Source: a virus (Duplodnaviria; Caudoviricetes). From it: a DNA stretch of 64,000 bases. The DNA lies in IMG/VR virus record IMGVR_UViG_3300028800_000093, positions 1,370 through 65,369 of that record, one strand, 5' to 3'. The notes below the pieces were generated by a model. It was not told the DNA's origin. It ran no database searches and saw nothing but the letters and a program-made list of their open reading frames with translations. The position numbers and the translations under genes are program-made. The number at the start of each line of letters is the position of its first letter. Within the stretch, counting starts at the first letter, position 1. Positions 41,953-60,733 of the stretch are shown one piece after another.

Positions 41953-42807
41953 TTAGCATCCTTGTTTCATGTGTTTGGGCTTCCAAGGCTTAGCCAAGTC
42001 AGCTTTAATTTCTTCTTTCGACATGCGCATGCCAGCCGGTTTCGGCATAGCAGGTTGACCCATGCCAGGAGGCTTCGGGCCTGCACCAGCCGGTTTCGGC
42101 ATAGCGGGCTTTGCCATTCCAGGAGCTTTGGGAGCTGCCGGTGCGCCAGCGGGAGCCGGTGCGCCGAAGGCTTTGGTAAGCTCTTCAAACTTCTTAGGGT
42201 CATCTTTTGCGGCTTTGAGCAAAACTTTCGCTTGATTCAAAATATCTTCAGCTTTCATTGCCGGAGCAGGCGCGGCGGGAGCTGCGGGCTTCTGCGCGGG
42301 AACACCACCGGCAACGCGATTAGCGGGTGAACGCTCTTGTTGCGGGCCGTGGATCGTATGCAAATGGGCGAGCATGGCCTTTTGCTTCTCGGGAGTGTCG
42401 AGGATCTTTAACGCATGATGTAACGATTCATCGCCTTCAGCTACATTGTGAGCTTCAGCGGGCGCGGATTGAGGAGGATGCGGCTTGTCGTCTTTATGCA
42501 TGGGCGCAGCTGCGGCGGGCTTAGTCGCGGGCATTGCGTCTTTTTGCATGTCAGGATGTTCCGACGGTTTCTTTTCAGAACTGATCTCGCCGCCTTGATC
42601 TGCAGCAGGAATATCGCTTTTTTTGATTTTCTTGTCGCGAAGATCGGCTTTGCGCTGATTTTCCATGGTGCGCTTTTCGAGCGCGGTACGCTCAGGAGAA
42701 GCTTTGGGAGCGGCACCTTTGGAAGCCTTTGTAAGTTCCTCAAATTGCTGGGGATTTTCCTTAGCGACTTTGAGAAGGTCTTGGGCCTGTTTCAGTACGT
42801 CTTTCAT
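41953..42807 (-). CDS. low-complexity putative internal head protein
   Basis: Pro/Ala/Lys-rich; duplicated D(V/I)LxQA...FEELTKA unit. Confidence 0.7.
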   Translation of the reverse strand: MKDVLKQAQDLLKVAKENPQQFEELTKASKGAAPKASPERTALEKRTMENQRKADLRDKKIKKSDIPAADQGGEISSEKKPSEHPDMQKDAMPATKPAAAAPMHKDDKPHPPQSAPAEAHNVAEGDESLHHALKILDTPEKQKAMLAHLHTIHGPQQERSPANRVAGGVPAQKPAAPAAPAPAMKAEDILNQAKVLLKAAKDDPKKFEELTKAFGAPAPAGAPAAPKAPGMAKPAMPKPAGAGPKPPGMGQPAMPKPAGMRMSKEEIKADLAKPWKPKHMKQGC

Positions 42808-42852
42808 GTTCACTCTACACCTCTCCACGAGATAGTTTCAATACAGGATAGA

Positions 42853-44679
42853 TTAGGTTCTTGCTTTCAGGAGCCTGCGAAGGCTAAGTGGTTCCGATTT
42901 CTTAGTGTCAACGCCGTGCTTCAAAGCTTCCATGACTTCTTTTTGAATCTGAGGATTGCCCTTGATGTGCTCTTCGAGACCAGGGTACGATTTGTCGTAC
43001 TGACCGTGAATATAGAGACCGACCTTGCGATTGTTCTTATCGGCTGCAGCCAAATCACTTTCCATGGCATCGGCGTATCCAGCTTTCTTCATCGAAGCTT
43101 CATCGGGGAACACGACGGCGTGCGGCTTGCTCGGGTCAATCAAGTGATCGTACTTCGAGCCCATTGACTGAACGACGTTGAAGTTCGGCAGCTTCTCAAG
43201 TTCATTGAGCCGCGAGCGAAGATTCGGGTGATGACTCTTGGTGTACGCATAAAATTTCACGTCAGGGTGAGCCTTCGCGATTTCGGTCCACTTGTCAATG
43301 TACTGAGGCGAATAGAAATCACCAGAGTCGTGAACACGTATTGCCTTGATCGCTTTCGCGCCCTTGGCAGTCTTTGCTTTTTGAATCATGTCGACCATCT
43401 TTGGCACGAAATCTTCTTTCTGTGACGCAAGCCAGTTCGACACGCGGGGAGGCATTGTCGTTTTCCAGAAGCGAAGAAATGAGCCCGTGTCGGCGTAGCA
43501 ATATTTTGCGCACGAGCCAGCACCAGGACATGTTTCGATTGGAACCAGATTGAATGATGCAATGCCGTCTTTCGCTAGCTTGGAATTCGTAGTACTCAGA
43601 GAAACCTTCGTCTTTTCAGGGTCGGCCATGAGCTGACTTTTGACGTCTTGAACGCGTGCCCGTTGATTGGGTCGCTCGGTTTTCGGATTGTACGGTTTCG
43701 GAGCTTCTGCTGCCGGAGCAACTGGAGCTGCTGAAACATTCTTTGCATCATCTTCTGCTTTACCAAATAAATTACCAAATTCTTGAGCGACGTTCGCTAG
43801 GCCGGTTTTTTCAGGCAGACCACCGCTCATAGCTTGTTGAACTTGATGGCCTCTCTCTTGTAACGAAGGTCCGGTCGACGTTGTTTCAGTCGGAGGAATT
43901 GGGACTTGACCACCGTCTTTCTCAAGCTTCTTCTTTGCGGTTGGATGCTCGTCTTTGACCGTGGCATATCCAGGCTTTGCATTCGGGTGAGTTTGGCCAG
44001 GTTCTTCGCCAATACCTAAAAGCTTAAGCGACATGCGCTTGCCTTCCGGTACGTTCTTGCGCCAAACATCTGCGACAAACTTTGCAGCTTGTTCGCGAAG
44101 CGGATGTTCTTGTGGAATGACATTGCCAGCTGCAAAATGCTGCTTCAATTCATGCGGAATTTCGATTCCAGCGATATGGGTCGCAGGTGCCAATTTAGGA
44201 GCTGGTGCTGGCGACACTTGCGCCGCAGCGGGTTTGGCAGATTGGGGATTCACGCCAACTTTCTTGCCGACCAAGAAGCGATTCTTGACCAGGACTTTTC
44301 CGAAGCCAGTTTTGGCGGGAGCTTGAGCCGACGGCGCTAAAACGATGCGACCGTGCGGATTTGACGGCTGATCGCGCAAGCCCGCCGCTGTGCTAGTATG
44401 GGTCTGCGGAGCTGGTTTTGGCTGAACTGGCTTTTTGAATCCACGACGCATTGTGGCAATGTATGAATTTTTTCTCATTTCTTCTTTGGTGTCACCGTAT
44501 AGTTTGGCGTCAGAACCTGATGTAGTGCTATGATCGGCAGACGAAACGGCAGCTTTGCTGCTATCATCGTTGGAAACCGGCGTAGCTCCTTGGGAATCAG
44601 CGGAAGGCTGATCGGCAGAATTATATGCGCCTTCTGCGGTCGTTCCATTGATTTCGGTCATGTCGTCGTGATCGCTCAT
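42853..44679 (-). CDS. disordered N-terminus + GP88-like (Cys-cluster) domain
   Basis: NSKL...TCPGAGSCAKYCYA...IRVHDSGDFY...FYAYTK. Confidence 0.75.
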   Translation of the reverse strand: MSDHDDMTEINGTTAEGAYNSADQPSADSQGATPVSNDDSSKAAVSSADHSTTSGSDAKLYGDTKEEMRKNSYIATMRRGFKKPVQPKPAPQTHTSTAAGLRDQPSNPHGRIVLAPSAQAPAKTGFGKVLVKNRFLVGKKVGVNPQSAKPAAAQVSPAPAPKLAPATHIAGIEIPHELKQHFAAGNVIPQEHPLREQAAKFVADVWRKNVPEGKRMSLKLLGIGEEPGQTHPNAKPGYATVKDEHPTAKKKLEKDGGQVPIPPTETTSTGPSLQERGHQVQQAMSGGLPEKTGLANVAQEFGNLFGKAEDDAKNVSAAPVAPAAEAPKPYNPKTERPNQRARVQDVKSQLMADPEKTKVSLSTTNSKLAKDGIASFNLVPIETCPGAGSCAKYCYADTGSFLRFWKTTMPPRVSNWLASQKEDFVPKMVDMIQKAKTAKGAKAIKAIRVHDSGDFYSPQYIDKWTEIAKAHPDVKFYAYTKSHHPNLRSRLNELEKLPNFNVVQSMGSKYDHLIDPSKPHAVVFPDEASMKKAGYADAMESDLAAADKNNRKVGLYIHGQYDKSYPGLEEHIKGNPQIQKEVMEALKHGVDTKKSEPLSLRRLLKART

Positions 44680-44694
44680 AGTTCAAAGATTAGG

Positions 44695-45834
44695 CTAATA
44701 GGTCCTGATGACCTGATCGCCTGCCTTCAGCTCAGCTGGGTGAAATTTGACGCCGGTAGCCTCGGAAGTAAGGGCTGGGCCAAGCTTGCTGAACTTCTCG
44801 TAATCCTCTTTGTCGATGGGGATATACGGAGTTGAGCCTTTCATGTTCATAATTTTCTTAGGAGCACCGTAAACCAGCAGGATGTGCATCTCTTTGCCGT
44901 CAACGCCCTTTAGCACATGCGGCTTGAAGATCATATCCTTCGCGTCGATTGGCTCGTGAAATTTCTGGCCTTCGATGGTACGCTGGATAGTTTGATGGTC
45001 GATCTGGTTCATGTCGCCAAAATTCTTAACCGTCATCTTGGTGGTCTTACCGTGAAGCGAAACAGGAATTTGTAGAACCATGTTAATCGGCGCTGGCGCG
45101 GGAGCTGGTTGTTCCGACTTTTTTATTTTACCATCCGGTCCAATGAATTTGTTTGCAAATGCGCGACCGGCTTCTGTCATATCGGGTGAACGAGCAAGTT
45201 TCTTACCGGACAACTTCTGGGCGTGAGAGGCCATCGCTGAGCCAATGCCCTTACGCTGATACTTCTGCTTGACTTCAAAATTGAACGGCATAATGCCGTC
45301 TTTCTTGTGAGTGACGGCTAAGAATCCAACTTGTTTACCGCCCATCTGATACCGCACGATAAAGTCGTGCTTCTTAGGATTAAACGCACTTGGCTCAACC
45401 ACAAAAGGCTCGACCTTGATTTTACCGGACGCTTTGGTGATCGGAGCAGGAGGAGTTTTCTTGATCCAGTCGGAAACGATATTGTGCTCGGTCGGTACGT
45501 GAAGATTCTCGTGGGTGTTCGGGTCTAGAAATTTGAACGTGACAAATTCTTTGTCGGGGTCTGCTTTGGCATCAGGCAATTGACCGGCTGGGTGAACACC
45601 GTGAAACAGAATGATATTGTTTTGGCCGTAGGTGCGCTCATGGACTTTTTCGATCTTTACGCCCTTGAGACCAGTTTCTTCTTCGAGTTCGCGAGTTGCT
45701 GATTCGTGATCGGTTTCGCCTGGGTGACAATGACCACCAGCGCATGCCCACTTTTTATTGTCGCGGCGCAGGCCGTGCAAGAATAGGTTCGGCTCAGTCG
45801 GATGTTGAATTGCGATGACGGCTATCTTCTTCAT
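44695..45834 (-). CDS. Nudix hydrolase-GNAT acetyltransferase fusion
   Basis: Nudix box GHCHPGETDHESATRELEEETGL; GNAT motif A YQRKGIG. Confidence 0.85.
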   Translation of the reverse strand: MKKIAVIAIQHPTEPNLFLHGLRRDNKKWACAGGHCHPGETDHESATRELEEETGLKGVKIEKVHERTYGQNNIILFHGVHPAGQLPDAKADPDKEFVTFKFLDPNTHENLHVPTEHNIVSDWIKKTPPAPITKASGKIKVEPFVVEPSAFNPKKHDFIVRYQMGGKQVGFLAVTHKKDGIMPFNFEVKQKYQRKGIGSAMASHAQKLSGKKLARSPDMTEAGRAFANKFIGPDGKIKKSEQPAPAPAPINMVLQIPVSLHGKTTKMTVKNFGDMNQIDHQTIQRTIEGQKFHEPIDAKDMIFKPHVLKGVDGKEMHILLVYGAPKKIMNMKGSTPYIPIDKEDYEKFSKLGPALTSEATGVKFHPAELKAGDQVIRTY

Positions 45835-46829
45835 TCCAGATCGCCCTTGAATTTTTTATTGCGACGTTTGATCTCATCGCCGACCATTTCCCAGCCTTGA
45901 TCTGCGGCTTGCTCTTGATAAGCCTTTGGGGTCTTAGGCCCATCAATGATGAAGATGCCGCCTTTGATGCCTTGTAACTTGGGAGCTGCGTACTTGATAA
46001 AGTCGGCTTGCACTTGGCCCATTAAGCTCATCATGCATGACCATACCATTTCAGTGCCGTTGAAGTGTGGATTCTGTTGAATATCGCCGACGTTGAATGT
46101 CGAGAGTCCAAACCCACGACGCTCAAGGTACGCTTCTTTGTAGCGCAGCATGATGTACTGTCCGATCTGACGAAGCCAAAGGGCTTGATTCAGGTTTGAC
46201 TCAGCGTGCATGCCGATGGCAAAAGTTTCGTCTAGGAATACTAGTTCCTTCTGAAGATTCCAAAGGCTCGTCGGTGGTGCGATGTAACAGTTCGTGAAGT
46301 CGTCTGTTGTACCCGCCAGAATTTGGAACTGGGTAAGACCCACTAACTTGCGAATGATATATGCTTTGCCGCTCTTCTTAGAAACCAAGAATTGGCCGAC
46401 GAACATTTTATTAGTGTTCTCGCCGGTAGGGAGAGTCATTGTTCCATCGACTGAATTATACGCGCTTGGCGTGAAGGTCTGGTAAACCTTTTGAACTTCC
46501 TGCGTGATGCCGCCTGGCGAGATTTCACTCTCCATTGAATCATCAGACAATGAAGCGCGTTCGGTCATTTCGCGGGAGGACAAGCGCACGATAGTGAAGC
46601 ACGGGAAGCGTGGCGTGTCGACTCGATTATTGAGATAGACTTGAATGTCATTGCCCAAGAACCATTCGACTGCAGCAGACGCTTCCTTCTGCCCATAGTC
46701 GGACTTAGAGAGTGGGTCATGCGCGAGACCGTCAAAGATATCCCACAGAATCCAATTGTTCTTGCGAAGGTCCGCAAGTGCGCCTTCGATCATGCTTTTG
46801 ATTAGGATGTCTGTTGCTAGGATTCCCAT
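45831..46829 (-). CDS. neck/tail terminator-like virion protein
   Basis: position upstream of the sheath; PRFPCFTIV motif. Confidence 0.55.
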   Translation of the reverse strand: MGILATDILIKSMIEGALADLRKNNWILWDIFDGLAHDPLSKSDYGQKEASAAVEWFLGNDIQVYLNNRVDTPRFPCFTIVRLSSREMTERASLSDDSMESEISPGGITQEVQKVYQTFTPSAYNSVDGTMTLPTGENTNKMFVGQFLVSKKSGKAYIIRKLVGLTQFQILAGTTDDFTNCYIAPPTSLWNLQKELVFLDETFAIGMHAESNLNQALWLRQIGQYIMLRYKEAYLERRGFGLSTFNVGDIQQNPHFNGTEMVWSCMMSLMGQVQADFIKYAAPKLQGIKGGIFIIDGPKTPKAYQEQAADQGWEMVGDEIKRRNKKFKGDLE

Positions 46830-47818
46830 TACGGCACCGACAAACTTTCTTCAAGTTTTTTGATGATGTTGATCCACTCTTTGTCGGCCCATTCTTTCGT
46901 TTGCTGTATAGAATTGAACGCGTCAACACGCGGGTACATCCAGCGGCCTTCGAGCTTATGTTTTGAAGATATGACGCGAAAAACCACGGTCTCTTTCTGG
47001 ACTTTGGCTTTGCCGGTCTTTTTATCGCGCATGATTTCGCCCTTACCATTGCGCTTGACTCGCTGGCTTACGACCGCACCGGCAAGCTTAAAGATACCGC
47101 CGTGAGGCTGTAGTCCGGTCTGGCCGATCTTGGCCAAGGCCTTATTCAATTCTTCAGCTGCAGCTTGGGTACGCGGCTTCGAGAATAGGTCGGGAGCCTG
47201 ATGCTGCGGAGTGCGAGAGTGCATGTCGAGCTTGTGGAGAATTCCTAACTTTGGTTCGCCGCTTGCGTTCTTTTCAATTTTGGTGAGCGATATCTTTTGG
47301 GTCTTGGCCTGTTGGCGAATCAACTCAGCGAATCCTGCCTTAGCACCTTTGGCGTCGGCTTTTCCTTCGGTCTGCTTCATGGGGATAGCGCGGTACAAGG
47401 AACCGTCTTTGGCTCGCTTGACGCCCTTAGCGCCAGGCTTTAAAAGCCATTCGCCCATGAATGTTTCTTCGCGGCCTTCTTCAAGCCAGCGAATGTTCTC
47501 GTCGAGTTCAACGACCCAGATGCCATCAGTGACTTTATTCCAGCGAACGTGTTTGACTGTTTGGTCAATTGCGGGATTTTGCGCAGATTGCCCGTGAGCA
47601 TTCTTACCGTAACGATCAAGACCTAAGAAGAACTGTCTTTTGAAGTCGTCGTTTGCCCATTTTTGTCTTGCGAGATTTACAATGTGGGCATGAGCAGCTA
47701 CCGACAAGGTTTCGACCGCATCGACTACTCTGTCTTCGATCACATCCCTGGTCGTGCGGAGTTGTTCCGCAATCGCAGAAACGTCTACTCTGAATCTGAA
47801 TGCGGCTTGGTTGTTCAC
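46829..47818 (-). CDS. tail completion/neck protein
   Basis: WLEEG, YRAIP, VFRVISSK...WMYP motifs of large-myovirus neck proteins. Confidence 0.65.
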   Translation of the reverse strand: MNNQAAFRFRVDVSAIAEQLRTTRDVIEDRVVDAVETLSVAAHAHIVNLARQKWANDDFKRQFFLGLDRYGKNAHGQSAQNPAIDQTVKHVRWNKVTDGIWVVELDENIRWLEEGREETFMGEWLLKPGAKGVKRAKDGSLYRAIPMKQTEGKADAKGAKAGFAELIRQQAKTQKISLTKIEKNASGEPKLGILHKLDMHSRTPQHQAPDLFSKPRTQAAAEELNKALAKIGQTGLQPHGGIFKLAGAVVSQRVKRNGKGEIMRDKKTGKAKVQKETVVFRVISSKHKLEGRWMYPRVDAFNSIQQTKEWADKEWINIIKKLEESLSVP

Positions 47819-49038
47819 TCACGAACCCCTTCCGTGCCAGACTTAGCCTTGGCGTTATGTGATGCAACGGAAATTACGTCGCCTTTGAGATCCTTCACTT
47901 GACCTGCGGCGACAGAACGCCATTTAGCTTTACCGTCAACCATAAGTTTTTTCTTGCGGCCTTTTACGGTGCCGACAGGATAACGAATGGCGATTGCTTT
48001 GTTCAACTCTTCGGTTAAACCGACAAGTTCAGACTTCTTGGTTGACTGTTTGGCTTTGGCCATATCGACAAGCTTGTGAACCAGACCCATGATCTTTTTG
48101 AAGGCTTCAGGATTCTTTTCCTGTAGCGACATTAAGCCTGGGAGTTTTTCTTGCACTGAGGCGAGGAGGTTTCCGATTTTATCGGTTGAAGCATCAGTAT
48201 CATCCGTATCGTCAGAATCCGAATCATCACTGTCGCTGTCACTATCGTCATCGCTATCATCATCGCCGTCATCTTTTTTACCTTTCTTGGAATCGGAGTC
48301 TTCAGAGTCCTTGGACTTTTTCTGTTTGGTCTCGGTATCGGGTTTGTCTTTTTTCTTCTCACCAGAAACTGCTTCAAGCAAACTGCCTGGCGGCTGTTTC
48401 TCTTGCTCGGCCTGTTGCTGCTGTTGCTGTTGAGCTTGTGCTTGCATTTGCTGAGCAGGACCCATCAACTGCTGAATAGTCGCATTGATCAACGCGCCTT
48501 CAGCTTGCAATTGCTGCTGAGCATCCAAGCCAGGCACGTACTTCCCGACGCCAGGTGCAGATGCATCGGGAGGCGGTGACTTCGGGTGAGTCATATCGTA
48601 CTGATTTGGCTGCGGACCAAACACATCGTCTTCAATTTGAAGAGACTTGCGCATCTCTTTGTACGAATCATCTTTCGGATCATACAATTCGATATCGTTT
48701 GTGAACGTAGATTTCTTGGCGGCTAGGGATGCTTCACGCAGATCGAGGCCCATGCCGACTGACATCATTGCGCCGAACACTTCGCGATAACCTGCAAGGA
48801 TAAGCGGGAGTTCTTCTGCTACGGTGATCGGGACTTGAAGCACTTGACGATCATACGTGGAAAGCGCGACTGAGCCGCCCTTCTCACCGACGAGCTGATT
48901 CATCTTGGTCGAAATGCTTTTGAGTTGATAGTCCAGGTCTTTAGCTTCTGCGAAGTAGCCTGAGTCTACGAGATCGCGGACTTTATCGGCTACGCCGTCT
49001 GTAGCTATGAGGACCCACACTGTGGTCTGTGTGCTCAC
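47815..49038 (-). CDS. degenerate mCpol-like nucleotidyltransferase domain + low-complexity tail
   Basis: SVGMGLDLREASLAAK C-terminal pattern; altered DGD and GGD sites; poly-Q and Asp/Ser tracts. Confidence 0.55.
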   Translation of the reverse strand: MSTQTTVWVLIATDGVADKVRDLVDSGYFAEAKDLDYQLKSISTKMNQLVGEKGGSVALSTYDRQVLQVPITVAEELPLILAGYREVFGAMMSVGMGLDLREASLAAKKSTFTNDIELYDPKDDSYKEMRKSLQIEDDVFGPQPNQYDMTHPKSPPPDASAPGVGKYVPGLDAQQQLQAEGALINATIQQLMGPAQQMQAQAQQQQQQQAEQEKQPPGSLLEAVSGEKKKDKPDTETKQKKSKDSEDSDSKKGKKDDGDDDSDDDSDSDSDDSDSDDTDDTDASTDKIGNLLASVQEKLPGLMSLQEKNPEAFKKIMGLVHKLVDMAKAKQSTKKSELVGLTEELNKAIAIRYPVGTVKGRKKKLMVDGKAKWRSVAAGQVKDLKGDVISVASHNAKAKSGTEGVRE

Positions 49039-51179
49039 GATACACCAAACTTTCTCTTTATCAGCAAGGCTGATTTGAGCGTTAAAAGGAACAGCTTAAC
49101 CACTTCTGGGTCAGCTCCCTTGGCAAACGCCAGGCTGAAATTGCCGTCAGACTTCTTCATAACCTGAACGAATTTATACGGCTTGCCTTCTTCATCTTTC
49201 TTCATAACCAAGAAACATGCGCACGGCTGAAACTTGGGATTGCCGTCTTTATCTTTCACGAATTCAGCGACTCCGCAGTTCTGGCAAGCGGACTTGTAAA
49301 GCTGCTCTTCAGTTGCGTGTGAAATCACGGACTTGCCGAGTTTGTTTCTGAAATACTCGTCTTTTTGCATAGTCGGATTCTTGGGTTGAACAGCGCCAGG
49401 AGTCTTGGGCGGTTTGTATCCGCCCGTGCCCGATGCGTCAGCCTGCGCCGAAGCTTGCTTTGCGGCGGCTTGCGCCGGAGCATTGGAAGGAGGTATTGGA
49501 GCTTTGGGAGCCAATGCTTTCGCGGGACCGTTCGGTTGACCTGCGCCCATCGGCTTATCAGCTTTGCCGAATCCACCAAGACCTAGGCCGACTCCGCCCA
49601 TCACGCGACCGTGTGCTGTAGGACTAGCTTTAGCGTCTGCTGCAATACCAGAAGCTGCAGATGAACTGCCTCCGCTGGAAGGTTCAGCTGCAAACATTGG
49701 AAATGCGATTCCGCCGCCAGCGGGTTTCTTGGCATTGGTAACACCGCCGCCTCCCGAGGGAGACGATTGGCTGGTGACCTGCTTGCCCTTTTCTTCTTTC
49801 TTCACATGCTCAGGCAATTTCTTGCCCTTGGTTGCTTCATCCCACTCGTGAACGTGAGCTTTACCGCCGAGAGCTTTAGTACCATCGTCGGTGTGTGCCC
49901 AGCGACGCTGAGCATCGGACACGTAAGGCTTCGAGAGTTTTTCGGCAGCTTTACGGAAATAGGAATTGCATTTGTCGAGTTTCGGATTCGGCGCAACGGG
50001 CGCAGACGATTGACGAGGCGAAGAAGTGTCTGCGGGCGCATGTGGTGCCATGGAATCTTTCTTGATGCCGTCGGCGCTGATGCGCTGTTGAATGCCCTTT
50101 TGCTGATGCTGATCTTGTTCTGCACCGGCCATGCGCGGGCTAGAAATATTACGAGCAGCTTGCATAGACGGAGCCATCGACTCTTTTGAGAACGGCTTCT
50201 CTGTATGCGGAGTATCCGATACTCTTACACCTTCAGCCATTTGGCGAGGTTTCGGTACCGGAGTGGCGGGCATGTCTTCTTTCTTAAATGGAGTTTCTTT
50301 CGAGGGAATTTCTGCGCGTCCTTTGGATTCAGGTGCAACTTTTGTCTTGGGATCAATAACGAGATCGGCGGCATCTTTGCCTCTCAAGTCTCGAACTTCT
50401 AGAGTGCCCATGCCAGGCGTTTTGATGTCGGGATTGTTCTTCAAGTCTTTATTGTGGTCTTTACCGACTTGCTCTGCCGATTTACCCTCGGTGAGTTTGC
50501 CTTGCTGATCTTTCACTTCTTTCTCCGATACCTTGTCAAGCTCGCTCTCGAATCTATCACGTGACAATTGCTTAGCGCAGAGAGCGTCTACAAGTTTGCC
50601 GATGACGGCAGTCATTTCGCGGACATTGGCGTGGGACATTTGCCATTTGATGTTTTCAGGGTCATCTGGCGGAGTACAATTTGACATGCCGATCATGCTG
50701 CGAACCATGTCGAGATCAGGGCCTTCGGCTTTAGGTTCGTTCAAATGCGGATTGGCCGTCGCTTCTTCTGCAACGAGATCGTCTGAACTCTTAGGCTTCT
50801 CATCGCCGAACGAATCATAAAGTTCGCCTACCGTCATCATGTGGCCGGACACTGCAGGAAGGGATTGCTTCTCGAACGTATGGATGATCTTTCCGCCCTG
50901 AACGTATTCGGCGCGGTATTGATCGTCGGCCTGCTTTTCAAAGTGAATCATAATATCATCGCGGCCAGGAAACTTGACATCGAGAATATTGCCAGGTTTC
51001 ATAGGCTTGATGTTTTGGACAAGCCAAGAGATGATGGTTCGCGGAACGACAATCAACGGCAGATAGTACTCCAGCGGGTCAATTACCGCTGCAGTCTTCT
51101 GCTTAAAAATGGCTTTCTCAAGGGTTTCATACCCCTGATTGCCAAGAATTGATTTTAGCAGCTTCGTGCTGTCGTTCAT
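49035..51179 (-). CDS. large putative internal head protein with C-terminal Zn-binding motif
   Basis: many phi-x-K-[ASDE] motifs; CQNC...CAC. Confidence 0.7.
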   Translation of the reverse strand: MNDSTKLLKSILGNQGYETLEKAIFKQKTAAVIDPLEYYLPLIVVPRTIISWLVQNIKPMKPGNILDVKFPGRDDIMIHFEKQADDQYRAEYVQGGKIIHTFEKQSLPAVSGHMMTVGELYDSFGDEKPKSSDDLVAEEATANPHLNEPKAEGPDLDMVRSMIGMSNCTPPDDPENIKWQMSHANVREMTAVIGKLVDALCAKQLSRDRFESELDKVSEKEVKDQQGKLTEGKSAEQVGKDHNKDLKNNPDIKTPGMGTLEVRDLRGKDAADLVIDPKTKVAPESKGRAEIPSKETPFKKEDMPATPVPKPRQMAEGVRVSDTPHTEKPFSKESMAPSMQAARNISSPRMAGAEQDQHQQKGIQQRISADGIKKDSMAPHAPADTSSPRQSSAPVAPNPKLDKCNSYFRKAAEKLSKPYVSDAQRRWAHTDDGTKALGGKAHVHEWDEATKGKKLPEHVKKEEKGKQVTSQSSPSGGGGVTNAKKPAGGGIAFPMFAAEPSSGGSSSAASGIAADAKASPTAHGRVMGGVGLGLGGFGKADKPMGAGQPNGPAKALAPKAPIPPSNAPAQAAAKQASAQADASGTGGYKPPKTPGAVQPKNPTMQKDEYFRNKLGKSVISHATEEQLYKSACQNCGVAEFVKDKDGNPKFQPCACFLVMKKDEEGKPYKFVQVMKKSDGNFSLAFAKGADPEVVKLFLLTLKSALLIKRKFGVS

Positions 51180-51191
51180 CGAAAGACCGCC

Positions 51192-51590
51192 TTACGAGTT
51201 GCTGCCGGAATTTGGATTCAATTTAAGGTCATCGTTGATCAGGTATCCGAAGCAAGTTGCTGCACTACAGATAATGTAGTTGTTTGTATACACGGCGATC
51301 AGCGTGTAATCCATAGGTTTCAGGGCGATGCCATCTGCGCCGCCTGTCGGAGCAGTGACTGCATTGGTCGTACCGAGTTTAGCCCATGCAGTGGTCGCGC
51401 TGTTGTTGTAAACGGCGACGATGGAACCAAGTTCCACGCCGACAGCTGCATTCAACGCTCCGAGGATCGTAGGATATCCGAGTATCGGGCCGAGCTGCTT
51501 CATTGCACCAGAATGTTGGTTGAATGAGCCTTCAGTCGCGTCTGCCGCGCTATACCGATCTTGTGAGGCTTTTGTTCTTTTGGCGTTCAT
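51192..51590 (-). CDS. virion structural protein
   Basis: late motif at 51613-51621, AGGAG RBS. Confidence 0.65.
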   Translation of the reverse strand: MNAKRTKASQDRYSAADATEGSFNQHSGAMKQLGPILGYPTILGALNAAVGVELGSIVAVYNNSATTAWAKLGTTNAVTAPTGGADGIALKPMDYTLIAVYTNNYIICSAATCFGYLINDDLKLNPNSGSNS

Positions 51591-51622
51591 GGGAATCTCC
51601 TATATAATCAACAAGATTAGGC

Positions 51623-52555
51623 TCAAAGCATTCCGCCGTTGGAACTGCCGTCATTTGGCCCAGTTACCCCACCGACAGGAGGTGGGTTCTGGTATCTCTG
51701 ATCCATTCTCGATTGATTTGGGTCGTTGTTCACATCGCTAAGTACTTGTTCTCTCATCACTAAAGCTTGAAACGGCATGCGTTCAAGTTTACGGTCAAAG
51801 GTCAACATGTCTGTGATCTGACTCACGCGGATTTCATGCAGCATTTTTGCCACGATGAAATAGGGTGTGTATCTGTACCGGATTGCATAGACGGTGCCGC
51901 GATTGGTCTTCTCATTGAAACCTGGCCGGTTCTGGGTCAGCCATTTGATGAAACCTTCGGGCGTGATCGAAAAATCAGTGTCTTGCTTGTATTCTTTGCC
52001 ATCTGCGTCACGAAGATATTCCACGAACGTGGCCGGATACTGCAGCTTGTCAACGCCGGTCGAATTGGCTTCAATGTACTGGACGGCGATTACTCGCACT
52101 TCAACGTCTTTTAGGTAGAAGCGGTCCCACTTGCCGATCACTACTTCTTCGCGGTTGCCGCACTCGTCCGGCTCGCCGGACTCATATTGCATAGGGAATG
52201 TCACAATGGCAGTATCGGCCTCGGTCACACCTTCGACTTCGATGTTCCAGTCAGACGTATTGCTGCTGAAAAAGATGTGCATCGAGCCAGCTTCCTTGTA
52301 AATGAAGTTGTCATCGGACTGACGCTTGGACTGAACCGCATGAATGTCGCCGATGGACGCCATACCGGACGGGTCTGGGAAGGCGCGGTAGTGAATTACG
52401 TCAACGCCCTGACTTTTGATCAACTGGTTGAACGCATCTCGGTCAAACGACTGTTGGTACTGTGCCAGCTGAATAATTTGCTGCATACCGTCGAGAGGCT
52501 GGTTCTGTCTTTTGCGGGGTCCACCGCGTCTGCGGGGAGCTGCTTTGTCGGCCAT
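51623..52555 (-). CDS. head closure/neck protein
   Basis: FNQLIKSQG, WDRFYL, YAIRYRYTPYFIV...HEIR pattern. Confidence 0.65.
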   Translation of the reverse strand: MADKAAPRRRGGPRKRQNQPLDGMQQIIQLAQYQQSFDRDAFNQLIKSQGVDVIHYRAFPDPSGMASIGDIHAVQSKRQSDDNFIYKEAGSMHIFFSSNTSDWNIEVEGVTEADTAIVTFPMQYESGEPDECGNREEVVIGKWDRFYLKDVEVRVIAVQYIEANSTGVDKLQYPATFVEYLRDADGKEYKQDTDFSITPEGFIKWLTQNRPGFNEKTNRGTVYAIRYRYTPYFIVAKMLHEIRVSQITDMLTFDRKLERMPFQALVMREQVLSDVNNDPNQSRMDQRYQNPPPVGGVTGPNDGSSNGGML

Positions 52556-52557
52556 AC

Positions 52558-53067
52558 CTACTCCTTAAACAGATCAGATAATTCGTCGTGATCTTGAGCG
52601 CACATCGCGGGCACCGTCATGGTAAGGTCGCGAACGAGTGCATGTCTGCTGATTTTGCCAGCTTTGATTTCTTCTTGAGCTTCGCTTTTGCTCATTACTT
52701 CGATCTTGCCCTTGGAAACGTCATACACGACGAAGGTGTCGGCGGCGGTTGCTTCGACTTTGCTGAGGGATACGGTCGGCATGAACATCACCTTACGAAG
52801 CTTTTGGAACAAGTCTTCTTCCGACTTGATCAGGTCGCGCTCGGATTTCTTGAAGTCTGAATCCCAAATGATCTTTTCTTTTTTGCCAGCGAGGAACTGG
52901 GCTATGGCGCGATGAGGCGCGGCACCTATAGAGCATGTGTTGCCGGACTCGTCCTTGCAAAAGAATGCGTGCAGACCACCTTTGGTGGAAATGTAAACGA
53001 CCGGACGACCGTCGTCAGTCTTACCGGCTATGGACTTGCTATCTATCTGGTCTGCGCTAATTTTCAT
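52558..53067 (-). CDS. hypothetical virion-associated protein
   Basis: FKKSE and LIKSE motifs. Confidence 0.65.
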   Translation of the reverse strand: MKISADQIDSKSIAGKTDDGRPVVYISTKGGLHAFFCKDESGNTCSIGAAPHRAIAQFLAGKKEKIIWDSDFKKSERDLIKSEEDLFQKLRKVMFMPTVSLSKVEATAADTFVVYDVSKGKIEVMSKSEAQEEIKAGKISRHALVRDLTMTVPAMCAQDHDELSDLFKE

Positions 53068-54116
53068 ACGGTTTTGTTAGCCTGCTTGATGTTGGATTTT
53101 AATTTCTCTTCTGGCGTCATCATAGATTGAGGCTTGATCGAATCAAGCTCTTCGTCGCGAATGCGGCCCATATCGGGCGTGAAGTTGGAGTCGCGAGTCG
53201 GCTCTTCAGTCAACTCGTCTTCGCGCCGCTTGTACCAGTTCTTCACTCGCATTGCGAAATCGGAACTGTCAACTGCAGTCTGCGTCTTCTTGATATCGCT
53301 GGCGGGAGTACGCTTAGGAGCGTAGGGGTTTAGCTTGTCAAGTTGCTTGAACTTCGACACGTAATCACTGTGGACTAATTTGTCGGTCGTGATGTCCGTC
53401 GGATGCAAGTTGTGGCCATGTAACCAAGCGAACGCAGCTTTGTTTGCATTGCCGCCTTGTCTCTGATGTACGTGCTCTGCGAGCTTGCGGGCTAAACCAA
53501 GTTCCACTTTCGGATTCTGCTTGAGGTGTGCTTCAAGTTTATCGTGCGACATTTGCGGAAGGTCTTTGTATTCCGGCTTGAGGGAGCCGTCGCGCTGCAT
53601 GCGGCCAACGATTTCATCGACCGTAGGCTTAAGAAGTCCCCAACGCCCTATAGCGCGAGTGCCCTTAAACTTGCCTGACTGTATAGGCTTGTGTTTCACG
53701 TTTTTCCCACCAGTCGATTCGATCTGTTCCACGTTCCAAAGGAAGTGATCCATTGGATGGGTTCCAAAATCTTCTGAATGATCTTCTGCTTGGGCCACTG
53801 CCGGAGGAGCCGACGGCTTAAACTGCGGGCGGTGCATCTGGCTACCCATTGGACTGACTGCAGTCGCGAGGCTTAGTCCGACAGCCGTAGCTTTTTGACG
53901 AAGAGACTTTGAGATGTCAGTGTTTTCTACCCACGAAGACATGGCATGGCCGTCGATGTATTCCGAAACAGCTTCCACGGCTTCTTTCAAGGTCTCGCAG
54001 GACATCGCGATCTCTTGTGTCATCGGGAACATCATAAAAACAGGATTCAAATCTTCTATGTCGGAGATTTTGAAGAACTGCTTGTCTTGGTTCGGCGATT
54101 GAACAAATAAAATCAT
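53064..54116 (-). CDS. lytic transglycosylase (SLT/lysozyme-like) domain protein
   Basis: QIESTGG (catalytic Glu), AIGRWGLL, AAFAWLHG. Confidence 0.7.
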   Translation of the reverse strand: MILFVQSPNQDKQFFKISDIEDLNPVFMMFPMTQEIAMSCETLKEAVEAVSEYIDGHAMSSWVENTDISKSLRQKATAVGLSLATAVSPMGSQMHRPQFKPSAPPAVAQAEDHSEDFGTHPMDHFLWNVEQIESTGGKNVKHKPIQSGKFKGTRAIGRWGLLKPTVDEIVGRMQRDGSLKPEYKDLPQMSHDKLEAHLKQNPKVELGLARKLAEHVHQRQGGNANKAAFAWLHGHNLHPTDITTDKLVHSDYVSKFKQLDKLNPYAPKRTPASDIKKTQTAVDSSDFAMRVKNWYKRREDELTEEPTRDSNFTPDMGRIRDEELDSIKPQSMMTPEEKLKSNIKQANKTV

Positions 54117-55909
54117 GCAGCCTGCCTTTCGCTGATCAGTCGACGAAAGTGATCTGCCCAGCTTTTGAGGATATCGCGTTTAGCGGCTGGGAGTTGATCA
54201 ATTGCATCGGCGATTGCCGCCATATGCGCATACTTTGGTCCGTCGGGATGCCACGTGTCCGAGAAGTGCCGCAGCATTTGATTGCGTGGGTCTACGTCGG
54301 GTTCGTTTCTGATCGCTTTCGTTTCCAAGTATGGATTCTCCGCAAGTGACTTAAATGTTTCTCCAGCTTCTTCGGGTGTCATGCCCGAGATTATGTTTCT
54401 GACGCCGCTGTTGAGCAAGGACCTTTGTTTGAAAGTCAGCTTGCCCTTCTTGTTGACTATATCAGAAATTGCCGAGAGAGCATCCTTTTTATTGCTTGGA
54501 AGAGATTTCAATTGCTTAGCAGTGATTTTTGGCGTGGCAGGTGACGAATTGCGCGTATCCTGGAATGCATGATGCAGTGAGCTAACATCATACATATTGT
54601 CGCCTTCGGGATCTGCTTGCATCGCGGTGTTCCAGTTGTTCATCTTGTGCCAGCGATTATTGAAATTGTCGCGGACGTGATTGCGCACGTCAGGATCTTT
54701 GATGTGTGCGACCTGACTTTCGAGTTCGTCTTTGATCTTCTGGCCGTGCTGTGACCACCAGTCAACTAGCTCGTGGTGAGAAGAGAAGCCCTGCGCTCCG
54801 CGATGTAAGTGGTGCAACGCAGATTTGGTGATGTAGGCCATTGGGGTCTCTTTGACTTGCGACATTTCTGGATCAGCTGATGCCATCCACTTGGCTCTCG
54901 GGCCTTCGCGGAGTATCTTTGAGTACTGCATGTTGCGTTCGTGATCAATCGCTAAAACTGGATTGTATCCTTGCACATTCGTCGTGTCGGGCGAGACCAG
55001 GAGATTACCCCAGTGCCTGTCAAGGTTGTTTGTCAGATAGTCCATCACGCCGATCTTATGAATGTCGGTCGGGTTGACTTGATACTTGTCTTTGTTGTAG
55101 GACTTCGCGCCCATCTCGTAACCATGTGCAAATTTATGCACAGTTAAAGGCACACCTTTATGCTCATGCGCTGACACATCTTCGGCGAGATCACCGATGT
55201 TGCCAGCGTTGAACAAGGCTTTGGTCGCCATAGTCGCCCAGCCAAGAATAGGATGTTTGACCCAGGACTTGGTTGCTGATTCGATTTCGCGGTGATACGG
55301 TTTGGCCATATACTTGTTGGGCGAATGGGGATACTCAGTATCTTCGATTTCGTGAACCATCTTGGGTGAAATTCCCTTTTCATCCAGCTTACTGGCGGGG
55401 AATTCCATATTTTTATCATTGAGCATTTTGGCGTGCTCAGGGTGAACTGGGAACTGAGTAATGTGCGGCTTTGCATCAACGACAAGATTAGCATCTTCAT
55501 TGTGCTTCTTAGCTACGCGGTTCCAATCCTTTTCTTTGACTGCCTTTTTCAAATCGGAAATGGTCAGATTCTGGAGTGAGCTTGCAGCCCACGTGCCGAA
55601 TTCGTAAACGGATTTTTCCAGGAGTTGTCGGTGAAAGTTGCTGGGTAAACTGTCGAGAGTTTCCTGGCGATATCCAGGAACCGTCAGATATTTCTTGAGA
55701 AAATGAAGGCCCATGTGGTCGGGCGCAAACTGTTGCTTAACGATGAATGGAACATGCTTTGCGACAAGTTCGCCGAACGCTGCTCGGCCTTCCGGCCCGA
55801 GTTCAGACTCAAGGGCTTCCATGAATTCACCAAGGGAGATCGTCCCAACGGGTTCGGTCTTTTCTAAGGACTGATCTCGCTGAGATAGCCAACGCTTGAT
55901 GCTCTTCAT
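54113..55909 (-). CDS. HipA/PI3-4-kinase-like atypical kinase
   Basis: YMAKP, MDYLTNNLDRHWGNLLV catalytic loop, AIDHE. Confidence 0.8.
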   Translation of the reverse strand: MKSIKRWLSQRDQSLEKTEPVGTISLGEFMEALESELGPEGRAAFGELVAKHVPFIVKQQFAPDHMGLHFLKKYLTVPGYRQETLDSLPSNFHRQLLEKSVYEFGTWAASSLQNLTISDLKKAVKEKDWNRVAKKHNEDANLVVDAKPHITQFPVHPEHAKMLNDKNMEFPASKLDEKGISPKMVHEIEDTEYPHSPNKYMAKPYHREIESATKSWVKHPILGWATMATKALFNAGNIGDLAEDVSAHEHKGVPLTVHKFAHGYEMGAKSYNKDKYQVNPTDIHKIGVMDYLTNNLDRHWGNLLVSPDTTNVQGYNPVLAIDHERNMQYSKILREGPRAKWMASADPEMSQVKETPMAYITKSALHHLHRGAQGFSSHHELVDWWSQHGQKIKDELESQVAHIKDPDVRNHVRDNFNNRWHKMNNWNTAMQADPEGDNMYDVSSLHHAFQDTRNSSPATPKITAKQLKSLPSNKKDALSAISDIVNKKGKLTFKQRSLLNSGVRNIISGMTPEEAGETFKSLAENPYLETKAIRNEPDVDPRNQMLRHFSDTWHPDGPKYAHMAAIADAIDQLPAAKRDILKSWADHFRRLISERQAA

Positions 55910-57616: not shown

Positions 57617-58324
57617 TTAGGCTCTTGTCTTGCCACGTTTCTGCTTGGATTTACCCTGTCTTTTCGGCTGTTTACCGCCGCGCATGGCTTGTTCCATAGC
57701 AACTTGCTGATCATACGAGGGATGATTGCCGAGGAACATTGACGGAGGTGCGTTGTTGGTGCGCGGAATACCAATATGGTCAACGATTCCCCACGTGCGG
57801 GCAGTCGCGGCGGTTAAAGTCCAGTCGGCATTGTGCTTCGACTTGATTTTGTCGTCGAAATCTTTTAAAGTCTTGCCGGTGTCTTCGGCTAAATTTTGGA
57901 ACAATTTCTTATTCAACATGGCCGTGACTTTGGCGGACTCTTGCACATCAGCGTTTTTACCTACTGCGAAGCTCGACACTTGATGGATCAGGATGTGCAT
58001 GTCTTTGGCCGCGAAACGATAGCCCTTGGTACCTGCCGCGAGCAGCGATGCTCCACAAGACATTGCCATTCCAACGCCGATGGTAGCGACCGGCTTGTGC
58101 GATGACTTGATCAAGTCGCGGATTGCGGTAAGGGCATAAACCTCGCCGCCGTAGCTGTTGATGAACACTGGAATGATCTGGCACTCTTGGTCTTTTTCGA
58201 GTTCCATGAATTTATCATAGAATCTGATCACCGCGTCGCTGTCGAAATCTGTGACCCAGACCATCTTACTGTCCGGTGCCATCGACAACATTCGCATCAA
58301 GTCCTTCTCCATACCGTTACTCAT
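57617..58324 (-). CDS. clpP: ClpP-family serine protease
   Basis: INSYGGEV, GMAMSCG (Ser), ILIHQ (His), ADWTLTA (Asp), WGIVDHI. Confidence 0.92.
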   Translation of the reverse strand: MSNGMEKDLMRMLSMAPDSKMVWVTDFDSDAVIRFYDKFMELEKDQECQIIPVFINSYGGEVYALTAIRDLIKSSHKPVATIGVGMAMSCGASLLAAGTKGYRFAAKDMHILIHQVSSFAVGKNADVQESAKVTAMLNKKLFQNLAEDTGKTLKDFDDKIKSKHNADWTLTAATARTWGIVDHIGIPRTNNAPPSMFLGNHPSYDQQVAMEQAMRGGKQPKRQGKSKQKRGKTRA

Positions 58325-59464: not shown

Positions 59465-59734
59465 CTATTTTGCAGCTTCTAACATTACTGCGGTAGGAGC
59501 TGTCCAGCCAGGTGCATCCGACGCGATGTGTGATAACCAGATTTTGCCTGCCATCACTTCCGTTGCCAACTGCATTGCTCCGACAAGTCCCATCTGATTG
59601 CTGGGGAAGGGATTGTGTTCCACTTGCCCGCCTTTTTGCATCGCGATCAGGACTCTGTATCCCACTTTGGGGTCCAGGATTACCTGGACCAGTTTGTGGT
59701 TGACGATTACTTCGCCTTTGATTTTGGTGCTCAT
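59465..59734 (-). CDS. hypothetical protein
   Basis: TAATG-coupled to the DUF932 gene. Confidence 0.65.
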   Translation of the reverse strand: MSTKIKGEVIVNHKLVQVILDPKVGYRVLIAMQKGGQVEHNPFPSNQMGLVGAMQLATEVMAGKIWLSHIASDAPGWTAPTAVMLEAAK

Positions 59735-60699: not shown

Positions 60700-60733
60700 T
60701 TATTTCTCCTTGTGAGTTACTTGATACACAATT

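Follow-up and report, generated by a model that had tools for sequence, protein, structure and literature searches.

A Candidate Array of Head-Packaged Proteins Marked by a Predicted Prohead-Protease Motif among the Neck Genes of an Uncultivated Mx1-Like Phage

1. Introduction

The internal proteins IPI-III and the protein Alt of phage T4 are carried in the head, trimmed by the prohead protease gp21 and injected. In the phages phiKZ and SPN3US, a T4 gp21-like protease (gp175/gp245) cuts after Glu in [S/A/G]-x-E. This text deals with a possible counterpart in an uncultivated phage. The DNA that was analysed, called the window here, is a stretch of 64,000 nucleotides (positions 1,370 to 65,369 of the IMG/VR record IMGVR_UViG_3300028800_000093) and makes up nearly all of a 65,369-nt viral contig. 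Eight late genes are inserted between its neck genes (41953-55909), and the products, which are rich in linkers, share a short motif, phi-x-K-[S/A], in which phi is a hydrophobic residue. The eight proteins may be loaded into the prohead and cut by an S78-type protease, and their domains injected together with the DNA; from the sequence comparisons described below, we put the probability of this reading at roughly 0.55.

Several systems of this kind have been described. In the part of the source that deals with its specificity, T4 gp21 is said to cut after Glu in I/L-x-E (10.64898/2026.03.04.709575). For SPN3US, the passages on cleavage sites report 14 cuts in nine head proteins that were mapped at the protease consensus, of which 13 remove N-terminal propeptides. 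The same passages describe extra consensus sites within long propeptides, self-cleavage of the protease at its C-terminal part, and preferences at P4 and P1' (PMC10052503). An alternative route to processing concerns the polyvalent proteins. Packaging of these proteins in the head and release of their domains by built-in metallopeptidases were proposed by Iyer et al. in 2017, according to the passages on packaging (PMC5512222). In the open-access and bioRxiv literature, a search for papers that describe a prohead-protease motif of the Lys-Ser/Ala type in SPO1-like phages, or polyvalent proteins as substrates of any prohead protease, found none. The accessible part of the literature on Myxococcus phage Mx1, a relative of the window, turned up a genome announcement alone.

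2. Eight Additional Genes between the Neck Genes

When the whole region was compared by megablast with 50,697 phage records, zero matches were returned and nothing near-identical was found. The protein of 310 amino acids (aa) encoded at 51623-52555 matches Mx1 at 35% identity and gp6.4 of Bacillus phage SPO1 (tblastn). It has 94 homologues in metagenomes, many of which sit on contigs of 140-170 kb, and an identical copy was found on a 109-kb metagenome contig. A scan of viral contigs with a single protein gave no match, and a profile search was required. The profile built from the homologues of the 310-aa protein led to 16 IMG/VR loci with up to 10 kb on either side (L002-L017), next to which Mx1 is referred to as L001. 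Gene order is conserved across the IMG/VR loci and Mx1 (BLASTP). Because of the homologue contigs and the conserved gene order, the window is placed within a large Mx1-like myovirus. Judged by these comparisons it is a fragment of an uncultivated genome of ~140-170 kb, with head and neck genes related to those of Mx1 and, more distantly, to those of SPO1.

Region 41953-55909 holds 12 minus-strand open reading frames (ORFs) in the same orientation, abutting or overlapping, which run from a gp6.3-like gene to the sheath gene and belong to the late structural gene block. Four of these are conserved and neck-type (310, 329, 332 and 132 aa). The eight extra genes have no counterpart between the capsid and sheath genes of SPO1, in which the order is portal, protease, scaffold, capsid, gp6.2, 6.3, 6.4, 7.1, 7.2, 8.1, sheath and tube. 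On the minus strand of the window the order is ClpP-like, 139-aa, gp6.3-like (416 aa), kinase-like (598 aa), 350-aa, 169-aa, gp6.4-like (310 aa), 132-aa, 714-aa, 407-aa, 329-aa, 332-aa, Nudix-GNAT (379 aa), GP88 (608 aa), 291-aa, 87-aa, sheath (929 aa) and tube. An earlier reading made from the letters alone (the sequence-only reading) had described eight late genes interleaved with neck genes, and by gene arrangement this was correct. Promoter- or terminator-like sites in the region did not exceed shuffled sequence. The products of the eight extra genes, all encoded on the minus strand (-), are:

54113..55909 (-): kinase-like protein, 598 aa, with a PI3/PI4-kinase or HipA-type catalytic motif (Pfam PI3_PI4_kinase 27.5 bits, cut-off 27.1; orthologues in seven loci)
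53064..54116 (-): 350-aa protein with a central lysozyme/SLT-like domain at ~105-275 (ESM Atlas leads; E133-S134 invariant)
52558..53067 (-): protein of 169 aa in which the motif occurs as two tandem copies (10 sequences aligned, Mx1 among them)
49035..51179 (-): 714-aa linker-rich protein with an N-terminal fold, a long disordered middle and a C-terminal four-cysteine domain (AlphaFold2, alignment)
47815..49038 (-): 407-aa protein with an mCpol/GGDEF-like N-domain, a Q-rich/acidic disordered middle, a conserved helix and a small C-domain
44695..45834 (-): Nudix - GNAT-like - C-domain protein, 379 aa (Pfam, AlphaFold2, Foldseek)
42853..44679 (-): 608-aa protein with ~300 disordered residues followed by a GP88 domain (Pfam GP88 E 7.2e-36)
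41953..42828 (-): Pro/Ala/Lys-rich protein, 291 aa, with two K-[ED]-[ND]-P-x-x-F-E-E-L-T-K/A copies (one orthologue, in L002)

3. Motif Excess within the Window

The sequence-only reading had listed 19 instances of the motif, all of which are present in the sequence. In the 12 module proteins (4,619 aa), [LIVMFYT]xK[SA] occurs 41 times where 21.2 are expected, and none of 200 whole-protein shuffles reached this number. Shuffling in local blocks of 10 or 20 residues served as a control for linkers that are locally rich in Lys, Ser and Glu; the expectation was then 21.9, and the count was reached in 0/300. The strict form [LIVMF]xK[SA][ED] was found nine times in the 12 proteins against 2.1-2.4 expected. 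Permuted control motifs gave ratios of 0.85-1.95 in the module proteins, none of them significant.

The eight inserted proteins alone carry 35 copies of [hydrophobic]-x-K-[S/A] against 18.4 expected (0/500 shuffles reach 35). The four neck proteins show no excess (6 against 3.8 expected, reached by 87/500 shuffles). In the remaining 63 window proteins (16,362 aa), there are 50 copies of [LIVMFYT]xK[SA] against 44 expected and a single strict motif against 3.2-3.4. Within the window, the motif excess is limited to the eight inserted proteins. Shuffles, control motifs and the remainder of the window agree in indicating a motif frequency above that given by lysine content alone, the explanation that the sequence-only reading had named as fatal to its proposal.

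4. The Motif in Related Loci

Enrichment was also computed for 16 loci, which were Mx1 and 15 of the 16 IMG/VR loci; L014 was excluded, as it starts at the gp6.4-like gene and no module was defined for it. In the homologous module of 16/16 loci, the strict motif was found three- to eight-fold over expectation. No more than one of 200 shuffles reached the observed count in 15 loci, and 7/200 did so in L011. Genes outside the module were unenriched except in L012, L001 and L017, and the sets of L012 and L001 take in the scaffold region.

A scan of all tripeptides was run without the pattern of the sequence-only reading. When eight divergent modules were pooled, KSE came first (57 against 12.2 expected, z 12.8). 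Taken module by module, KSE took the top rank in Mx1 (12 against 1.45); its rank was two in L009, four in L015 and six in L017, and it was low in L013 and L016. Around 109 K[SA][ED] sites, a hydrophobic residue was present two positions before the lysine in 67% against a background of 28%, and the other flanking positions were near background. The phi-x-K-[S/A] pattern therefore emerges from the data through the tripeptide scan and the hydrophobic preference at position -2.

The lysines of the strict motif are also better conserved than their surroundings. Their identity is 0.74 against 0.34 in the flanks (n = 8; alignments with 7-16 orthologues), whereas other lysines have 0.38 against 0.37 (n = 327; Mann-Whitney p = 4.5e-4 between the two classes). 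On the evidence of these alignments, the strict-motif lysines stand out as conserved points within linkers that otherwise vary.

In fused orthologues, K[SA][ED] sites are located just beyond the edges of Pfam domains. The GNAT domain of an L004 protein (300-370) has one site before it, at 275, and two after it, at 371 and 392; the S-AdoMet lyase domain of an L016 protein (232-324) is bracketed by one at 221 and one at 355. In Mx1, L005, L008, L010, L011 and L015, a motif site follows the Nudix domain 9-35 residues on. The G-G-K-S-E inside the Mx1 Nudix domain belongs to what we take to be the Nudix signature region and was read as a false positive.

5. Capsid, Scaffold and Protease of the Relatives

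The link between the motif and a protease rests on relatives, because the window's own capsid, scaffold and protease genes lie off the contig. A metagenome scan for the capsid and scaffold genes of the window phage itself yielded just one contig of 1,632 nt. The upstream regions of five relatives (L026-L030) were used for the comparison. Their gene order is portal, a protein of 532-583 aa, one of ~200 aa, a giant one of 1,989-2,200 aa, one of ~150 aa, one of ~280 aa and the capsid protein of 462-463 aa. The ~280-aa protein is taken to be the scaffold because of where it is encoded and what it is composed of. Portal, S78 protease, scaffold and capsid genes are thus found upstream in the relatives, which is a virion context that includes a portal.

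SPO1 gp3.2 scores above the Pfam Peptidase_S78 cut-off. In BLASTP, its similarity to the 532-583 aa proteins and to the 1,239-aa "putative prohead protease" of Mx1 spans 150-260 residues at their N-termini (E 3e-11 to 6e-6). An S78-like protein was detected in this way in 5/5 relatives and Mx1, the domains of the relatives being without a direct Pfam S78 match.

The N-terminus of the capsid protein reads L-V-K14-T-L-E-A-G-N in the relatives, L-R-K-A-M-E-A-G-N in Mx1 and L-N-K23-A-L-E-A-G-H in SPO1. The sequence-only reading had pointed to the capsid N-terminus as a place to look; the motif is present there in relatives, Mx1 and SPO1 and aligns with Lys23 of SPO1, the window's own capsid protein being outside the contig. 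Six scaffold-like proteins of the relatives have 22 strict motifs against 1.1 expected (0/500), and the SPO1 scaffold has 12 phi-x-K-S against 0.83 expected (0/500). With a 14- to 20-fold enrichment, the scaffold proteins are the richest in motif. The neck and tail proteins of SPO1 show no excess (5 against 6.1 expected). The motif also follows the catalytic domain of the protease, as L-D-K-S-L-E-A-G in SPO1 and L-A-K-S-I-E-A-G in L030. Taken together, these comparisons indicate that the motif is the mark of the expected protease substrates of the lineage.

In the relatives, a PI3/PI4-kinase-like domain (26.4 bits, with the cut-off at 27.1) comes next in the protease protein; it is a paralogue of the module kinases, to which it shows similarity (BLASTP E 4e-6 and 7e-9). 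A hidden Markov model (HMM) built from the kinase orthologues gave no match to the protease fusions, and BLASTP and Pfam were used instead. Since an S78-like N-domain is fused to a kinase-like domain in the relatives, one enzyme domain appears physically tethered to a prohead component. The fusions are:

L030:1563-3311, L029:4737-6335, L028:13773-15443, L026:12181-13932, L027:14115-15830 and Mx1 L001:1924-5643: protease-kinase fusions, 532-1,239 aa

The C-terminal part of the fusion is PI3/PI4-kinase or HipA-like and is split from the N-terminal SPO1-type protease by L-A-K-S-I-E-A-G-M-Y-N-V.

6. Candidate Sites and Domains of the Inserted Proteins

The candidate sites in the eight proteins are listed below, with a slash at the predicted cut.

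55853..55867 (-): L-E-K17/T-E, at which a cut would remove a 17-residue N-terminal leader of the kinase-like protein (ortholog alignment)
55538..55552 (-): L-K-K122/A-V, kinase-like protein (K in 6/7 orthologues; flank identity 0.36)
53901..53915 (-): I-S-K70/S-L, upstream of the SLT-like domain (K in 9/9 orthologues, K-[S/A] in 7/9)
53280..53294 (-): I-K-K277/T-Q, downstream of the SLT-like domain (K in 9/9 orthologues; flank identity 0.22)
52819..52854 (-): F-K-K74/S-E and L-I-K81/S-E, 169-aa protein (K81 in 11/12 orthologues, nine of them with K-[S/A])
49557..49571 (-): F-G-K539/A-D, in a disordered stretch of the 714-aa protein (K in 10/12 orthologues; flank 0.24; predicted local distance difference test score, pLDDT, <50)
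49326..49340 (-): L-G-K616/S-V, directly before the C-terminal cysteine domain of the 714-aa protein (K in 11/12 orthologues; pLDDT<50 segment 608-622)
48640..48654 (-): M-R-K131/S-L, after the N-domain of the 407-aa protein (K in 7/12 orthologues)
47992..48042 (-): T-K-K335/S-E and L-N-K347/A-I, before the C-terminal domain of the 407-aa protein (K335 in 11/12 and K347 in 10/12 orthologues)
45427..45441 (-): I-T-K134/A-S, Nudix-GNAT linker of the 379-aa protein (pLDDT<50 segment 127-146; K in 3/11 orthologues by alignment)
45112..45126 (-): I-K-K239/S-E, linker after the GNAT-like domain of the 379-aa protein (K in 10/11 orthologues; flank 0.17; pLDDT<50 segment 235-273)
43753..43767 (-): F-G-K307/A-E, before the GP88 domain (conserved in 2/2 orthologues aligning here, of three orthologues in all)
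42892..42906 (-): T-K-K594/S-E, near the C-terminus of the 608-aa protein (the helix before the site is common to the 407-aa protein)
42166..42735 (-): L-T-K34/A, I-K-K70/S-D and L-T-K219/A, 291-aa protein (single orthologue, so that conservation is barely testable)

At the position aligned with K17 of the kinase-like protein, L005 and L007 have I-K-K-S-E or V-K-K-S-E, and L002 has L-E-K-T-G. In the 350-aa protein, I-S-K70-S-L and I-K-K277-T-Q bracket the SLT-like domain. The leads to this domain are ESM Atlas feature scores of 0.94-0.95 to SLT clusters and a structure TM of 0.56-0.69; a PDB profile search of the protein was without a meaningful match and Pfam without any. Mx1 and L013 read L-S-K-S-E at the K81 position of the 169-aa protein. 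In some relatives, long arrays of leucine-rich-repeat-variant (LRV) units are fused to a domain of the 169-aa type (L010:62-5103 and the L004 module).

The 714-aa protein has no family match in Pfam or PHROG. Its AlphaFold2 model is poor (mean pLDDT 52), with pLDDT<50 in 392/714 residues. Two or three of its eight loose-motif sites are in disordered parts, and K9, K22, K676 and K702 are in predicted folded parts. At the C-terminus (49146-49290), C632, C635, C653 and C655 are invariant in the orthologues, which suggests a small zinc-binding domain. For the 407-aa protein, mCpol was matched by Pfam in 3/13 orthologues (best E 2e-11), the window copy being without a match.

In the 379-aa protein, Pfam NUDIX scores 38.2 bits (cut-off 21.1) and GNAT 23.6 bits, below the cut-off of 27, and the best Foldseek matches are NudC, Nudt12 and RppH. 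In the AlphaFold2 model, made from an 8-sequence alignment, the mean pLDDT is 66 and the Nudix domain (1-126) is mostly at or above 85. The sequence-only reading had placed ITKAS and IKKSE at the borders of Nudix and GNAT in this protein, and both sites indeed fall in linkers with pLDDT<50. Its fused relatives have the motif 10-35 residues past the Nudix domain. The placement at domain borders holds for these linkers and for the fused orthologues, and fails for several listed instances that lie inside folded domains.

GP88 homologues are encoded near the right end of ~50-kb mycobacteriophage genomes. This right end is the early-gene arm, which fits a pre-made delivery. PGL..KNP..TKKSE is a local similarity between the 608-aa and 407-aa proteins. 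Motif sites in three of the eight proteins stand after a helix element, K-[EDG]-[ND]-P-x-x-[FIL]-[KEQ]-[KEQ], of which the 291-aa protein has two copies; its spans are 42166-42735 (291-aa), 48043-48120 (407-aa) and 42907-42990 (GP88 protein). This element may be a targeting or scaffold-binding element.

Of the domains named by the sequence-only reading, Nudix and GP88 are above their Pfam cut-offs and the kinase-like domain just above (27.5 against 27.1 bits). GNAT falls under its cut-off, mCpol is absent from the Pfam result of the window copy, and the transglycosylase comes from ESM Atlas leads alone. The term "enzyme cargo" suits the five of the eight proteins that have enzyme-like domains, and not the 169-, 714- and 291-aa proteins, in which none was recognised. 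"Polyproteins" describes the relatives, where fusions of up to 1,533 aa are found, better than the window, where most domains are encoded as separate genes. The Mx1 protein of 1,479 aa contains an N-terminal domain (weak YunG match, phrog_12251), GNAT, ART-PolyVal and Nudix; other fused relatives are Nudix-GNAT-VTC and GNAT-kinase. The relatives additionally carry VTC, ART-PolyVal, S-AdoMet lyase/DUF3293, LRV repeats and DUF5661.

7. Possible Mechanism and Rival Explanations

The gene arrangement, the excess and conservation of the motif, its position in linkers, and its identity with the capsid, scaffold and protease sites of relatives and SPO1 were computed directly. From these, it is very likely that the eight inserted proteins are substrates of the SPO1/HK97-type prohead protease of the lineage, and they are therefore probably head cargo. 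The mechanism would be as follows. The products of the extra genes would enter the assembling prohead, where an HK97/SPO1-type (Pfam Peptidase_S78) protease would cut [hydrophobic]-x-K/[S,A,T], a motif often followed by Glu or Asp, most likely behind its Lys. Cutting would strip leaders and disordered spacers and free the kinase-like, SLT-like, mCpol-like, Nudix, GNAT-like and GP88 domains. The freed domains would remain in the head until they enter the host alongside the DNA, where they would serve as ready-made enzymes for takeover or anti-defence. The idea that a prohead-protease site marks cuts between domains, as the sequence-only reading held, has gained strong comparative support from capsid, scaffold, S78 tail and domain edges; head packaging, the exact scissile bond, the acting protease (S78-type or ClpP-like) and ejection into the host are what we infer from it.

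Several observations weigh against this reading. The window contig stops ~2.4 kb short of the capsid gene and lacks the genes for capsid, scaffold and S78 protease, and the inserted genes are among the neck genes and not beside the scaffold. The scissile bond would be placed after the lysine by analogy with Listeria phage A511, the capsid of which is reportedly matured at a Lys-Ser bond, and with HK97, which is likewise said to be cleaved at Lys-Ser. A further weakness is the shortness of the motif, and KSE comes just 29th of 159 tripeptides when the window is scanned by itself. Several listed instances fall in predicted folded parts (714-aa AlphaFold2 model); judged from this model, the list of the sequence-only reading mixes likely sites with chance matches in folded domains, and part of the list is probably not cut. 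By tally, the gene ends of relatives are within five residues of a motif at just 4 of ~16 fused-protein junctions, and one of the four matches is A-L-K/S, with the hydrophobic residue directly before the lysine, which is beyond the pattern counted. Chance coincidence was estimated at 1-2 junctions (an estimate without a computed control), and the coincidence of gene ends and motif is thus a weak argument for cut sites. In the five giant proteins of the relatives, whose genes lie between those of protease and scaffold, the motif is scarcer than expected if it deviates at all (36 copies where 47 are expected), so that position in the head module alone is no predictor of the motif.

The rival explanations differ in what happens to the proteins and in what cuts them. 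One possibility, which is unlikely, is that the proteins are prohead-protease substrates that act mainly as assembly core or scaffold-like filler, and are cut and expelled before or during DNA packaging with little or none injected. The 291-, 714- and 407-aa proteins have long Pro/Ala/Gln/acid-rich disorder and resemble the scaffolds of relatives, which are the most motif-rich proteins, and three of the eight proteins are without an enzyme domain. However, five proteins have compact enzyme-like domains with few internal sites and with sites that bracket them, which suggests preservation rather than degradation, and an SLT-like domain has no obvious role within the prohead. It is slightly less probable again that the products are associated with neck, collar or tail, or are late proteins of the cytoplasm, and are processed by another enzyme than S78 in the head, e.g., the ClpP-like protein encoded at 57617-58324. 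The position of the genes between neck genes and adjoining the ClpP-like gene would agree with this, as would the presence of ClpP-like genes in 3/5 related records searched, Mx1 included. Yet the ClpP-like gene of Mx1 is ~115 kb off although the Mx1 motif signal is the strongest, and the 86%-complete record behind L002 is without a ClpP-like match although the L002 module has 12 motifs against 2.1 expected. Moreover, the motif matches the capsid N-terminal site common to SPO1, and the SPO1 head gene cluster that was fetched has an S78 protease and no ClpP-like gene.

The remaining explanations dispense with cleavage or with the motif itself. A different purpose of the motif, such as a phosphorylation or modification site for phage kinases, a helix-capping preference or a targeting signal free of cleavage, is improbable: kinase-like domains do occur in the module and fused to the protease, and acidic, helix-prone sequence often follows the motif, but Ala stands after Lys in 37/109 sites and thus offers no phosphate acceptor. 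The 63 remaining proteins of the window show no enrichment, and the motif is also found in the scaffold and at the capsid N-terminus, which are the usual substrates of a prohead protease. Lowest of all is the probability that the excess is a chance or compositional artefact of Lys-, Ser- and Glu-rich linkers. The shortness of the motif, its choice after the sequence had been viewed and the several instances inside folded domains would speak for an artefact, which is disfavoured by the global and local-block shuffles, the permuted control motifs, the rest of the window, the first rank of KSE in the unbiased tripeptide scan, the conservation islands at motif lysines and the enrichment repeated in 16/16 related loci.

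A broader picture can be drawn if the loci are read jointly, and it is held more tentatively than the cleavage and injection of the window proteins. In a widespread, uncultivated Mx1-like clade, the capsid-maturation protease might double as the polyprotein processor of a fast-shuffling set of injected enzymes. This set could possibly comprise kinase, Nudix, GNAT, ART, SAM lyase, VTC, nucleotide cyclase, SLT and GP88. With [hydrophobic]-x-K/S-E in the linkers as a conceivable universal junction, domains might be fused, split or swapped and still be delivered, one effector being fused to the protease. The set of mature proteins that enters the host might in that case be deduced from the sequence by itself.

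8. Neighbouring Genes and Other Features

The ClpP-like gene adjoins the module in the window and in 6/16 related loci that were compared (15 from IMG/VR, and Mx1); of these 16, several end before that point upstream. In the related records searched, one to three copies are found where the gene is present. The ClpP-like protein of the window was considered as a homologue of the Mx1 prohead protease and was rejected, as it has no relation to the annotated prohead protease of Mx1. The 416-aa protein was also tried as the capsid protein; this was ruled out, because it has no similarity to the Mx1 capsid and is SPO1 gp6.3-like instead. It measures 416 aa in the window against 292-355 aa in relatives, and the insertion consists of two CBM5/12-type carbohydrate-binding stretches. 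The features around and between the inserted genes are:

57617..58324 (-): ClpP-like serine protease of family S14, which might be the processing enzyme instead (Pfam CLP_protease E 4e-32; PHROG families of head maturation proteases)
55911..57161 (-): SPO1 gp6.3-like neck or fibre protein, 416 aa, with a CBM5/12 insertion (context gene)
51623..52555 (-): SPO1 gp6.4-like neck-type protein, 310 aa, not cargo (phrog_1004; tblastn to Mx1/SPO1; 94 homologues)
51192..51590 (-): small conserved structural-module protein, 132 aa, without motif excess (orthologues in nine loci)
46829..47818 (-): neck-type protein, 329 aa (orthologues in 14 loci, several weakly matching SPO1 gp7.1)
45831..46829 (-): conserved structural-module protein, 332 aa (orthologues in 12 loci, 30-67% identity)
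38870..41659 (-): tail sheath, which closes the module (37% identity to the annotated Mx1 sheath; weak SPO1 sheath match)
L026:5064-11576, L027:6947-13522, L028:6150-12500, L029:6939-12908 and L030:3897-10499: giant ORFs of 1,989-2,200 aa without a family match

A giant ORF is present between the protease and scaffold genes in 5/5 relatives examined. DUF932, a DnaQ-like exonuclease and an ATP-dependent DNA ligase are encoded at 59734-62637 (-), between the off-contig capsid gene and the neck genes, and break up a block that is contiguous in SPO1. A protein of 2,135 aa is encoded at 5461-11868 (-), and its N-terminal region is baseplate-wedge-like. In the tail and baseplate proteins of the rest of the window, K[SA][ED] is below expectation (6 against 11.9).

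9. Comparison with Known Systems

The T4 proteins IPI-III and Alt are the first point of comparison. They are late non-structural or enzyme proteins that are targeted to the prohead core, carried in the head, cut at the prohead-protease motif of the phage itself and injected with the DNA (in part PMC5512222; 10.64898/2026.03.04.709575), a course that is predicted here for the eight proteins. A short N-terminal leader that ends in the motif is another likeness, predicted here for the kinase-like protein (17 residues). The differences are that the motif here is Lys-Ser/Ala and the protease in the lineage is of the S78 type, that the genes are among neck genes, and that multidomain proteins have internal sites. 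In phiKZ and SPN3US, many head-internal proteins are cut at a short consensus, as is predicted here, and the S78 fusions here likewise have motifs past the protease domain. In contrast, the protease of those phages is T4 gp21-like, and the sites here are mostly inter-domain and predicted from sequence.

With respect to maturation by S78 proteases, as in SPO1-like phages (Herelleviridae) and HK97-like phages, the capsid motif aligns with L-N-K23/A of SPO1, the SPO1 scaffold contains 12 phi-x-K-S and the protease is homologous. Unlike the window, SPO1 has just six small genes between capsid and sheath, without a motif excess. The proteins DarA, DdrB and Hdf of phage P1 are also head-packaged, proteolytically processed anti-defence proteins, according to the parts of two sources that mention them (PMC5512222; PMC12810830). 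No sequence relationship to the Dar proteins was found, and the type of phage and the processing differ.

If the eight proteins are indeed cut in the head and injected, a sequence rule would be available that predicts pre-made injected phage proteins together with their cut sites. This would also explain how domains whose genes in other phages lie outside the structural genes, close to the right end of the genome (GP88; L5 gp82-like in Mx1), can act ahead of phage gene expression, and it would offer a natural cargo-loading and release signal that might be tried for protein delivery by phage heads. The hypothesis is directly testable, because Mx1 is cultivable and has the strongest motif signal.

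In domain content, a parallel is found among the polyvalent proteins. In the passages that describe them, several conflict-type enzyme domains are present per polypeptide, are encoded with virion genes and are predicted to be packaged and injected, which resembles the present set (PMC5512222). The Mx1 orthologue has ART-PolyVal, and Nudix and GNAT occur together. The repertoire across the relatives matches the packaged polyvalent set as far as these passages list it, i.e., Nudix, GNAT, VTC, ART-PolyVal, S-AdoMet lyase, mCpol and kinase (PMC5512222). At least two unrelated conflict-type domains in one polypeptide are found in the 379-aa protein (Nudix, GNAT-like and C-domain); in each of the other seven, no more than one enzyme domain was recognised. 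A metallopeptidase (MPTase) or a MuF/portal fusion, which is common and not obligatory in the polyvalent family, was absent from the Pfam results of the window proteins and of 14 fused orthologues. The difference is that the linkers here carry a motif of the capsid protease and that the set is largely split into separate genes in the window. The inserted genes are best read as encoding prohead-protease substrates in a split form of "polyvalent" head cargo, and they would, if this is true, join ejection proteins processed by a prohead protease with polyvalent conflict proteins, which have so far been described separately.

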